A stretch of DNA of 63,429 bases, the filler included, from Perkinsus olseni (Eukaryota), in NCBI GenBank assembly GCA_013115125.1. It is 54 parts of 54 records of this genome, joined end to end, with 100 filler letters (N's around TTAATTAATTAA, not from the genome) between each part and the next. Parts side by side here need not be neighbours in the genome. Positions count along the whole stretch, not along the records: positions 7,212 to 8,311 come from JABANN010002110.1; 53 more parts are not named here. One strand, written 5' to 3'. Each line of letters starts with the position of its first letter. The stretch's first letter is position 1. Positions 7,112-59,968 of this stretch are shown here, in pieces. The notes beneath the pieces were generated by a model that saw only the letters and a list, made by a program, of their open reading frames with translations, made no database searches and was not told where the DNA came from. The position numbers and the translations under genes are program-made.

Positions 7112-7212
7112 NNNNNNNNNNNNNNNNNNNNNNNNNNNNNNNNNNNNNNNNNNNNTTAATTAATTAANNNNNNNNNNNNNNNNNNNNNNNNNNNNNNNNN
7201 NNNNNNNNNNNT

Positions 7213-7662
7213 GAACTGGGCGAAGAAATCACACTTGTTGACATCATTAGGGACAGGTTTAGAACCCAGGAGTCTGCGGGTGTCTGTGGGGATGTCGACA
7301 AGATACATCAGATAACAGGTTCTCCGGGGAAGGACACCAGCTCGGGTCAGAAGCAAGGACGGCCAGGCAATAAGGGGAGTTTAGAGGATTGGGCCAAGCA
7401 GTATCCAGCAGTGTGGGTGGTGACCATGAAACAGTTCAGGGAGGAAGAAGTTAGAGAGAACTTCAAGCCGGATGACATCAAACGAGTCGGAATGCGACCA
7501 AAAGGGGGTGTACGCAAGTACTATGCTGTGATAGGCTATAGGGATGCTGATAGGGGAGGCGCAGTGGTGAGAGAGGTCATGAAAGCGACGGAAGGGACGG
7601 ACCGCTTCAGGGCTAGGGAGTTCGTCTACAAGAAGTCGGGAAACGGGCAAGGCCGGGCATGA
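7213..7662 (+). mobile_element. C-terminus of an LTR retrotransposon Gag with an RRM-like domain
   Basis: Frame is open from the contig start and ends just after a G GGA AAC slippery site, overlapping the protease frame. Confidence 0.6.
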
Positions 7663-7699
7663 CCGAGGAGGGGCATGCGCCGGCCGATAAGACATCCTC
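7638..7699 (+). promoter_or_regulatory. -1 programmed ribosomal frameshift signal (slippery heptamer plus stem-loop/pseudoknot)
   Basis: G GGA AAC in the gag frame, 6-nt spacer, stem 7651-7661/7674-7685. Loop GAGGA can pair with TCCTC at 7695-7699. Confidence 0.8.
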
Positions 7700-8311
7700 T
7701 TATTCACTGCTCAAGGGCAAGGAACCACAAGGTCGGCACGACAGCGGCGAGGAGGGTCAGTCACCGATCCAGAGCTCAGCTGATCACACTGACTACCAGT
7801 GTGACCGGGTCTGCCTCGTATACCTGGAGGTTCCACAAGAGCTCAGGGTGGATGTAGAGCTGATCAGTGCACAGCAACCGACTCGAGCCATGAGGAAGTT
7901 GAAGGCTACAATAGATCCGGGAGCGGGTCGCACCTATCTTTGCGTCGAACCGGCGGACTGTCCGCTGCCGACGAAGGAGATAATGAGATGGGCTCAGTTG
8001 GCAGATGGCTCGAAGACGTCAATCGTTAAGGCGGCCGAGGTACACCTCACGTTGAGTTTCGCTGACGGCAATTCGGTGAGTATCGGACCTATAGAGGTGG
8101 GCCTGTTGCCCACGGGGTCGGCTGGGGAGGCCAGCATGCTTATCGGTAGGGACGTCGGGAAGCTCGTGGGCCTCAGGGTCGATTTGGCCTCGGGAAAGGT
8201 CACATGCGAAGCGTCGGGGCACGTGGAAACGGAAGGGGCCGTGGACCATGATGGGGTGGACTTGATCCGTTATGTTGAGTCAGAGGTTTGGCCGCTGGTA
8301 GGGAAACCAGC
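7659..8311 (+). mobile_element. Retropepsin-like aspartic protease of pol (-1 frame)
   Basis: ATIDPGAGRTYL active-site-like motif, LADGS flap and MLIGRD C-terminal motif. Confidence 0.75.
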
Positions 8312-8411: not shown

Positions 8412-9507
8412 GTTCGCGCCATGTGGAGCTCATGCGCTGCTGAGTAGCATCCCAGCATCCGCCAGTAAGCTTCGCGGGGAGAAGCGCAAACGGCAGGGGC
8501 TGGGGGGTGTCGAACAGCACATCGGTGGTGGGGAAGTCTACTGGCAACGAGGCAGAATGGGCCAGCTCGCTGTTGGGGTCATCAAGGGTGACGGCAATGA
8601 GGACTACGGCAGACCATGATGCGGTGTTACTGTCGGTCAGCAAGACAGTGCCGAGTAGGCGATCACCCAGGGATGTAGCGAGGAGGCCGGGTAGTCCAGA
8701 GAGGTAAAAGGCAACCAGAGTGTAGAAACTCTTCTTCAGTCGGTCATAGAGGTCTTCGGGGATGTCCTCATCAACCTTCTGAAAGACTGATTGAGCCTTC
8801 TGTATCACGAAGAGAGCCGACATAGCGTCAGGCCCCAGGAAGCCTCGGAAGTAGTTGAACACACCGAACCACTTACGGAGCCATGTCGTCCTTGCCACTC
8901 GAGGGTTGCCACGATCCGACGGCTTGAGGGTGGGGTTCATGAACTCAGACCACGCGGTGGAGGCGGTGGTGTCAGTGAACTCGAACCGTGTCGGCTCCAT
9001 GGTGCAACAACCATTCGTCAACCTCAGACCACAGAAGTTGACCGATGATGATGGTGGTGTGGACTTGGCGTCATTGATCAAGAAGTGCAAGGCCTGGAAC
9101 TCCTCGCGGGCCACGGATACGGCACCTTCACAGTTGTTGGTGTCCACCGCCGCGATGAGGACATCATCTTTATTGTGGCGGGCTACTGCCCGGATGCCCT
9201 CCTTATCCAGACGAGCGTTGATCCTATCAATGGGTATGTGCATAGAGGAGTTGAAGAGCACACTGCTCCATACCCAGCCTTGGGGAAGAACTCGGAGTTG
9301 CCACCACACTAGCTCTCCCGAGGGGTCCCTCGTGACAAGGCCGAAGAGAGCCGATAGCCGAGGGGGAAGGAGGATGCATGAGTAGGCGTCCACCAAGTCG
9401 ACCTTAGCATACACGACGTAGTCGTAGCCTACGACTCGTAGGGAATGGACCCGAGCCTTGCCGATGGGCTGGGCTCCGACTGACGGTAGGCCGCTTTGGT
9501 AGCAGAC
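8412..9507 (-). mobile_element. Reverse transcriptase plus RNase H fragment of an LTR/DIRS-like retroelement
   Basis: KVDLVDAY, LPQGW, NKDD, FCG, WFGVFNYFR and LLTDSN. The frame is open across the whole contig. Confidence 0.85.
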
Positions 9508-27416: not shown

Positions 27417-27783
27417 CAAGAGGACGCAGAGAAGCCACAACCAAAAACTTCCAAGTAACCCTTCCAAATCTCACCCTTTCATCATCCCGATGGAAGGTCA
27501 GTGTTACATAACCAGTAGTAGCCAGCTTCGAACCATTCACAGCTGTTAAGGAAGGTGACTGAGTAATCGAGTCAGATTCGATAACATGAGCGAGCGACAG
27601 ACGAGACAAGAGCTCAGAAGAAACCAACGAGACTTGACTACCTGTATCCACAGTAGCCACACAGCGAACAGAGCGTATATTAACATAAATACGGGGTAGG
27701 GGTGTATGTCGAACTGACGACACAACACAACCTATAGTGGGCTCCCGAAGCCCGTAGTCGACGGAAGCCCTGCCTCGTTTCCC
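27417..27783 (-). mobile_element. Ty3/gypsy-like aspartic protease (-1 frame relative to gag)
   Basis: ATVDTGSQVSLVS and LTAVNGS. The frame is open back to the slippery site. Confidence 0.9.
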
Positions 27784-58913: not shown

Positions 58914-59968
58914 TTTACGGCCTCTCAGAATGCTATGGTGGGATCTATTACGAAGTTGGTGAACCAGATGAAGGATACTGGTGGTAATGGATTCGGCCCG
59001 AATGGTGGTAGGAGGTCTCAGAAGGGTAAAGGGAAGAAGCGTACCCCGACGTGTTACTTATGCTCTGATGCTCATTGGGCTCTCTCTTGTCCGTTCAAGA
59101 AGCATGATCGTGGTTGTTTCATCTGTGGTTCGTCTGACCATATGGCCCGGTCGTGCCCTCAGTACTCATCATTTGTGACCACTATTGCTAACAAGAAAGC
59201 TAGCGGTGTGTCGGGAAGCTGTTAGGGCGCTCGCCTGACAGCCCGCGAGTGCCGCAAGTTGGACTATATCCTTTTGGGAGGAACAATGGTTTGTTCCTCT
59301 ATGCTGATCTTCTCTTTGACCATCGCCGAGTTGGTCCGTTACGCTGCTTGGTGCATACTGGCTGTTGTTCTACTATGGTGGCAAGGCGGGTGGTTCCTCG
59401 TGAAGTCGAGATTCGGCCCGTTACCGGCCCTTCTCTTATGACATTGATCGTTCTACCTGTACGTTTTTGGGAATGACTCCTTTGACTGTAGAAGCTCATG
59501 ATGGTGACAAGGCTAGGAAAGGGATGGCCCCGGACCGCGTTGATCCTAGGTTCCCTTTCCGTGTTGAAGCTTTGGTGGTGGATTCTCTTGCTTATGACTT
59601 GATATTAGGGCATGATTTCATGTCTCATTATGGGTTGGATATTCAGTATTCGGCTACTCCGATTCAGATTGTTGGTAACCCCCCGTTGAAGGAGCCCTCG
59701 TCTCTTCCGTGGTTTGTGGAGCATCCTGTGCAAGCAGCCAACTTGAAGGGTAAGGCTGAGTCCTATTGCTTGTCGTCACAGCACACCTCTTGCGCTGCGA
59801 CTTCGCCCGATAACGACTCCTTCGACTTGTCTTGCCCGGAGTATTTGGTGGCTGGTGCTGGCGCGAAGATTAACGTAGTACCACTGACTGATGAAGAGTT
59901 ACGTGAGAAAGGTTGGCCCGTTCCAAGATCCAGTTCGGTCCCGACACCTTCTGCGACTTCGATACCGC
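58914..59968 (+). mobile_element. Degenerate Ty3/gypsy gag (two knuckles) plus protease
   Basis: CYLCSDAHWALSC and CFICGSSDHMARSC; LVHTG (Asp lost) in the -1 frame; YDLILGHDFM after a further frameshift. Confidence 0.88.
59213..59253 (+). promoter_or_regulatory. Mutated -1 frameshift signal
   Basis: G GGA AGC, 6-nt spacer, 9-bp stem GGCGCTCGC/GCGAGTGCC. Confidence 0.65.

Follow-up and report, generated by a model that had tools for sequence, protein, structure and literature searches.

A probable programmed -1 ribosomal frameshift signal at the gag-protease junction of Perkinsus olseni LTR retrotransposons

In a retrotransposon fragment of Perkinsus olseni, the gag reading frame terminates within a region where the -1 frame is already open and leads into a protease, which raises the question of how pol is expressed from this element. 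The fragment lies on one contig (G000:C1230, positions 7212-8311) of the window, a stretch of 63,429 nucleotides in which 54 separate contigs of approximately 1.1 kb are joined by N linkers; its ends overlap contigs C1894 (upstream) and C2256 (downstream) by approximately 70 nt each. Signals for programmed -1 ribosomal frameshifting are defined, in the part of PMC7618472 that treats them, by a heptamer X_XXY_YYZ in which Z is not G, a spacer of 5-9 nt and a stem-loop or pseudoknot, and in the standard model outlined there the structure slows the ribosome and both tRNAs slip one base back. The heptamer G_GGA_AAC is among the most shift-prone on mammalian ribosomes, according to the passage on this point in PMC5009743. 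All of these components are present at the main site (Table 1): the heptamer at 7638 conforms to X_XXY_YYZ, with Y being A or U and Z other than G, and the spacer is within the canonical 5-9 nt. A sequence-only reading of this DNA was therefore correct in describing a properly phased TCG GGA AAC in gag, followed by a 6-nt spacer and an 11-bp bulged stem. The overlap between gag and the -1 frame (7617-7659) contains the heptamer, and no stop interrupts the -1 frame between 7617 and the end of the contig. A search of Rfam with the signal matched no family (best E 4.9). It is highly likely that this site is a programmed -1 ribosomal frameshift signal of a Perkinsus LTR retrotransposon, the direct observations being the arrangement of its parts, the offset, the selection acting on both frames, its recurrence at other junctions and the covariation of the stems.

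Table 1. Features of the main site and of the two further cassettes in the window
Feature	Position	Strand	Description
gag, 3' end	7213..7662	+	stop 7660-7662; zinc knuckle absent; upstream part in C1894 via 71-nt overlap
Slippery heptamer G GGA AAC	7638..7644	+	in gag phase, reads TCG GGA AAC
Spacer, 6 nt	7645..7650	+	
Stem 1	7651..7685	+	7651-7661 pairs with 7674-7685; 11 bp, one bulged G
Candidate stem 2, H-type pseudoknot	7666..7701	+	7666-7672 would pair with 7695-7701; loops of 4, 1 and 9 nt
ATGA	7659..7662	+	-1 frame AUG overlapping the gag stop; inside stem 1
pol, 5' end, -1 frame	7617..8311	+	disordered linker, then retropepsin; continues in C2256
Second cassette	27739..27783	-	G GGA AAC, 6-nt spacer, 9-bp stem; zinc-knuckle gag to -1 protease; DUF7047-type element
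Third cassette	59213..59253	+	G GGA AGC, 6-nt spacer, 9-bp stem; broken Ty3/gypsy-type copy

A frame offset of this kind could also result from an assembly error, or from a decay indel in a single-ORF element, with the motif being present by chance. Decay indels are common, single-ORF elements are the majority, and two junctions elsewhere in the genome (C407 and C3082) display a -1 offset without a heptamer beside near-identical single-ORF sisters. This explanation is nevertheless contradicted, because contigs of another sample (X7), approximately 3-5% different, keep the offset without any indel, and because the bias in silent sites changes frame at the junction. Of the 54 differences recorded over the stretch, 40 were listed. 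A total of 18 of these precede the heptamer, and 14 of them leave the Gag protein unchanged, as compared to 1 that is silent in the -1 frame; of the 22 that follow the heptamer, 13 leave the -1 product unchanged and only 4 are silent with respect to gag. Run X3, a possible source of the DNA studied here, was not counted in this comparison. None of the listed X7 changes (28 of the 30 on the covering contig) falls within 7591-7728, which holds the whole cassette, and the offset is identical and free of indels in nine other contigs of the clade. The offset at the main site is real and both frames are selected; an origin in error or decay is extremely improbable.

The claim that the -1 frame leads into a retropepsin was borne out, since the frame is open to the end of the contig and the predicted fold resembles that of retroviral proteases. 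A model of the protease, built with five relatives, has a core pLDDT of about 85-90, and its best structural matches are retroviral proteases, including that of Rous sarcoma virus (E 8e-4, probability 1.00); judged from this prediction, the main-site -1 frame encodes a retropepsin fold. The codon of the catalytic Asp is at 7914, in a D-P-G motif that replaces the usual D-T/S-G and is also present in relatives C2905, C468 and C768. Sequence searches were negative: the gag tail and protease gave no match in Pfam, the protease stretch retrieved no longer relative from a protein database, and the pol of C2905 gave no match in a PDB sequence search. The contig C1230 ends after the protease. Over the aligned part, the pol of C2905, the closest relative in the genome, does not differ from a protein recorded at NCBI under Perkinsus olseni, which places the host in Perkinsus. 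In C2632, of the same clade, matches to protease, RNase H and rve follow one another in a gypsy-like order, the last two being under the cut-off; an RT motif is present in C2905, and a search for RVT_1 in C2905, C468, C2632 and C3316 gave no Pfam match. Taken together, C1230 and the clade relatives C2632 and C2905 display the gene order of an LTR retrotransposon (gag, protease, RT, RNase H, integrase), and identical direct terminal repeats approximately 6 kb apart were detected in two of the four clade relatives examined (C1360 and C3316) and in neither of the other two. Gypsy-type Pfam models for RT and RNase H match C118 and C291, of the clade of the third copy, with E 1e-27 or better. A minus-strand reverse transcriptase frame (RVT_1, E 1e-8) at window positions 8413-9507 belongs to a separate contig and is adjacent to the main site by concatenation only.

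The clade of the main element comprises ten contigs, whose gag has no terminal zinc knuckle and comes to its end right at the slip site; the terminal domain of the main-site gag is common to six relatives. The heptamer occupies the same place throughout, being GGGAAAC in six contigs and AAAAAAC in four, a swap that alters the amino acid and preserves the slip pattern. A run regarded as RNA by guess only (X10) covers 8139-8311 of the main-site contig, a part that lies downstream of the junction. One and the same 70-nt sequence is found at the start or end of six contigs (C1894 at L003:1-70, C74, C192, C382, C761 and C1134), and in each it adjoins a different retroelement sequence that starts with N-A-G; it has the appearance of a terminus of some small mobile element inserted into retrotransposons, including the gag of the main element in at least one copy.

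A genome-wide search with the pattern GGGAAAC-N5-RGG displayed no enrichment (156 matches against 130 in the reversed control), and gag-protease junctions were therefore gathered by protein searches independent of the motif. Over all searches, 39 junctions with a -1 offset were collected, and a canonical, correctly phased heptamer is present in 31 of them, these counts being per contig, with close sisters included, and thus not independent. The chance of finding such a heptamer in a 14-30-codon overlap is 1-2% each (108 in 150,578 codon positions). Of the 31 cassettes, 28 came from the protein searches, two are the window's own and one (C1207) came from the sequence pattern; C875 and C1759 are counted although their contigs end before the protease. 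The heptamers are GGGAAAC (24), AAAAAAC (4), CCCAAAC (2) and GGGTTTT (1), and none ends in G. The remaining eight junctions are the copy at 59213, C72 (C GGA AAC, in a gag with stops), C130 and C3257 (G UCA AAC), and C1, C142, C407 and C3082, which have no heptamer. The spacer measures 4-8 nt over 30 cassettes, being 6 nt in 16 and within 5-9 nt in 26, and folding downstream of 23 junction GGGAAAC sites has a median of -17.8 kcal/mol, as compared to -7.6 for 95 other GGGAAAC sites in the same loci (p 9e-13); in C1207, C377, C118, C192 and C2595, the downstream folding is weak, with z near 0. The two bases that precede the heptamer are TC in 15 and CA in 6 of the 23 junction sites (6 and 6 among the 95 controls), and in unrelated clades the slip site mostly follows a UCG or CAG codon, a preference that is possibly an E-site effect.

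Recoding is by no means the rule among these elements. Among 43 matches to PF13975, gag and protease share a frame in 31, seven overlap in the -1 frame and possess both an in-phase heptamer and a stem, one overlaps likewise but has no heptamer, one is unclear and three are not callable, so that most elements need no frameshift (31 of 40 callable protease matches, in a sample limited by the reach of Pfam). The suggestion that recoding operates across the LTR elements of this protist thus stands for several unrelated lineages, but not for the majority, in which gag and protease lie in one frame; a majority of single-frame copies had been named in advance as counting against the suggestion, and it does so when the suggestion is taken genome-wide, but not for the lineages considered here. 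The accompanying suggestion, that structure is kept while sequence changes, is supported in several unrelated LTR lineages. Four single-ORF elements (C10, C136, C161 and C172; L231, L233, L232 and L224, respectively) have a second long ORF in the -1 frame, overlapping the 3' part of the first ORF; it lies far downstream of the protease, without a heptamer, and may reflect decay or a later junction.

These junctions also bear on two other routes to pol. The first would be splicing of the RNA such that gag and pol become one frame, leaving heptamer and stem without a role, for which 272 frame-restoring GT/GC-AG pairs are available around the junction and to which the public gene model P0003, from a relative, lends itself by presenting one protein that runs from gag into the protease region. 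Splicing, however, accounts neither for the in-phase heptamers (31 of 39 junctions) nor for the swaps between GGG, AAA and CCC or the fixed spacer; moreover, the GT near the gag stop of C2905 and C468 is missing in the main-site copy, and the join in P0003 is itself probably made by a predicted intron. This route is very unlikely. Two P. olseni protein models, P0002 and P0003, show one chain from gag to protease and apparently skip the junction. Gene finders place predicted introns at frame offsets, and the joins in both models are probably predicted introns over the frameshift site; frameshift junctions would explain such odd gag-pol joins in public gene models of Perkinsus elements.

The second route, termination followed by reinitiation at ATGA, would start pol as a separate protein, and had been put forward as an alternative for this copy because of the stop/start overlap; the AUG at 7659, which is in frame with pol, does overlap the gag stop. 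This alternative proved weak, since the main-site copy is alone among 27 junctions in having an AUG no more than 10 nt from the gag stop, and 18 of the 27 lack any AUG ahead of the protease, C2905 (the closest relative) being one of them. In addition, the AUG at 7659 forms part of stem 1, and a Pol that is not fused to Gag needs another route into the particle. Reinitiation is highly improbable as the way in which pol is expressed, and it could act as a minor extra route in the main-site copy. Frameshifting at the heptamer is the explanation retained here.

The nature of the stimulatory structure is a separate matter. A 45-nt segment of the main site folds at -25.1 kcal/mol (z -5.1), while for a 66-nt segment z is -3.2, with 2 of 200 shuffles being equally good. 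The proposed pairing of the loop GAGGA with a downstream TCCTC does exist (5 bp, -5.6 kcal/mol, 4 nt between stems), but a register one base over fits better, involving 7666-7672 and 7695-7701 (7 bp, -7.5 kcal/mol, 1 nt between stems). Comparison with C2905 reveals covariation in both stems, in the register shifted from the one first suggested: stem 1 has three two-sided and two one-sided changes among 11 pairs, stem 2 has three and two among 7 pairs, and every pair is kept; in C468, a stem 2 of 6 bp is found at the same place. This covariation comprises three sequences, with pairs set by hand.

A frameshift could also be stimulated by a plain stem-loop in which the second stem is not formed, a reading that concerns the structure only and is compatible with frameshifting as the best explanation. 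Known cases work with stem-loops alone, as stated in the relevant part of PMC7618472, and at the main site the lowest-energy nested fold places the 3' strand of stem 2 in a hairpin of its own (7686-7704, -3.2 kcal/mol); 14% of swapped partners score as well as stem 2 taken alone. A strong second stem is present in only 9 of 30 cassettes, the excess over all 30 being mild (permutation p 0.012). The two-sided changes that keep stem 2 in C2905, its presence in C468, the H-type geometry and a stem 2 duplex (-7.5 kcal/mol) stronger than the competing hairpin (-3.2 kcal/mol) speak against a plain stem-loop, which appears rather doubtful at this site, and a pseudoknot in the main-site copy is likely. 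The other cassettes, including both further copies in the window (27783 and 59213), resemble plain stem-loops, so that a pseudoknot common to the three, as had been suggested, was not seen; it characterizes the main-element clade and some other clades. A general pseudoknot rule for Perkinsus cassettes was also considered and rejected, a strong second stem being limited to the 9 of 30.

The same layout had been reported to recur at 27783 and 59213. This applies to the copy at 27783, which is canonical and on the minus strand, but the heptamer at 59213, G GGA AGC, breaks the AAA triplet and is not of the X XXY YYZ type, and this copy is itself broken: its protease has a His where its sisters have the catalytic Asp, and its frame is interrupted further on. 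The sisters C698, C1759 and C3019 have G GGA AAC and an identical stem, and the 59213 copy is best read, from these comparisons, as a decayed copy with a variant heptamer, not as a second type of signal.

The relationships of the elements were assessed through an RT tree, a quick version of 65 rows with SH-aLRT support only, no bootstrap and several long branches, in which the labels C3320_p1205 (a different element on that contig) and C469 (a contig without gag) were ignored. Frameshifting elements fall into at least four separate groups, interspersed with single-ORF elements: the main-element clade, a Ty3/gypsy group that includes the sisters of the 59213 copy, and the DUF7047 clade, which includes C3213, a relative of the 27783 copy (support 99 for each), as well as C3194 with C725 (support 95). 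The three window elements are placed in separate RT groups and hence, by their sequences, come from three deep lineages, which supports the comparative point made earlier. The observation that three LTR families share the signal within one window thus holds in that three different RT clades are involved, but the sharing of the window means nothing, because the sites are on three physically unlinked contigs joined by linkers.

Some junctions depart from the canonical arrangement. Two distant elements of the DUF7047 clade, C130 (L087, near 2450) and C3257 (L084, minus strand), have an in-phase G UCA AAC and a protease in the -1 frame, with strong stems 4-6 nt downstream of the heptamer (z -3.3 and -2.8) and a D-P-C protease motif; a search for a third G UCA AAC junction found none. 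Both may be decayed, because each has one further break in the pol frame, at different places. Should G UCA AAC be functional, Perkinsus ribosomes would seem to allow slippage of a single tRNA, because re-pairing is impossible at the codon in the P site. In C176 (L085:1048-1053), a gag of 349 aa and a pol of 1176 aa share a frame that is interrupted between them by a single UGA followed by CUA, an arrangement seen in one copy only. UGA CUA is a readthrough-prone context. It is conceivable, as a tentative proposal, that Perkinsus LTR elements switched repeatedly between single-ORF expression and recoding, and that the DUF7047 clade uses rarer forms (G UCA AAC and in-frame UGA CUA).

In the proposed mechanism, the majority of ribosomes would translate gag and terminate at 7660, while the stem 6 nt downstream of the heptamer, probably as part of an H-type pseudoknot, would slow a minority at the point where GGA occupies the P site and AAC the A site. 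In these ribosomes, tRNA-Gly and tRNA-Asn would slip from GGA AAC to GGG AAA, one base back, and translation would continue into protease, RT, RNase H and integrase, so that less Gag-Pol than Gag would be made. For Perkinsus, the slip, the rate at which it occurs and the ratio of Gag to Pol are expected by analogy with known systems. The mechanism is a textbook one, and what is new is its extension to another group of organisms; a literature search that covered few subscription journals found no paper on a -1 signal in Perkinsus or alveolate retrotransposons. The junctions provide sequence-level indications of classical -1 frameshifting by the cytoplasmic ribosomes of a Perkinsozoan, and the approximately 30 natural stimulators, of unrelated sequence behind one slip site, could serve as a panel for the comparison of stem-loops and pseudoknots.

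Several known systems resemble the Perkinsus signal. The Ty3/gypsy-derived genes PEG10, PNMA3, PNMA5 and Rtl3/Zcchc5 have GGGAAAC with a structure 5-8 nt downstream, according to the sections of PMC11299033 and PMC5009743 that describe them, and in these genes, as in Perkinsus, GGGAAAC ends a gag-derived frame and is accompanied by a pseudoknot or stem-loop. They are, however, domesticated host genes of mammals, whereas the Perkinsus sequence is a full alveolate LTR element with an unrelated stem sequence; the features of the C2905 Gag weakly resemble those of clusters of retrotransposon Gag and of PNMA (0.80-0.82, a lead only). The retrovirus SRV-1 also uses GGGAAAC, with a stem 1 shorter than the 11-bp stem 1 of Perkinsus. 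In gag-pro signals of the SRV-1 type, a heptamer and an H-type pseudoknot precede a retropepsin, as indicated in portions of PMC2995055 and PMC3203594, and the same arrangement is seen here with a candidate pseudoknot, in an element that is not a retrovirus. Decoding across frameshifts is also described for mitochondria of the same genus, but the passages in PMC2952869 and PMC9550989 concern mitochondrial ribosomes and codon-specific sites in organelle genes, which are unrelated to a nuclear heptamer with a structure. A further parallel is gag-pol frameshifting in LTR elements, where pol in the -1 frame is associated with a classical heptamer as in Perkinsus; a 2003 survey, in the passage summarized in PMC5009743, gives a -1 pol frame for 28 of 51 animal LTR elements. 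That passage deals with animals, fungi and plants, whereas the elements described here belong to a Perkinsozoan and form at least four RT clades mixed with single-ORF elements. One of these clades is divergent, with a pol that is barely recognized by Pfam.
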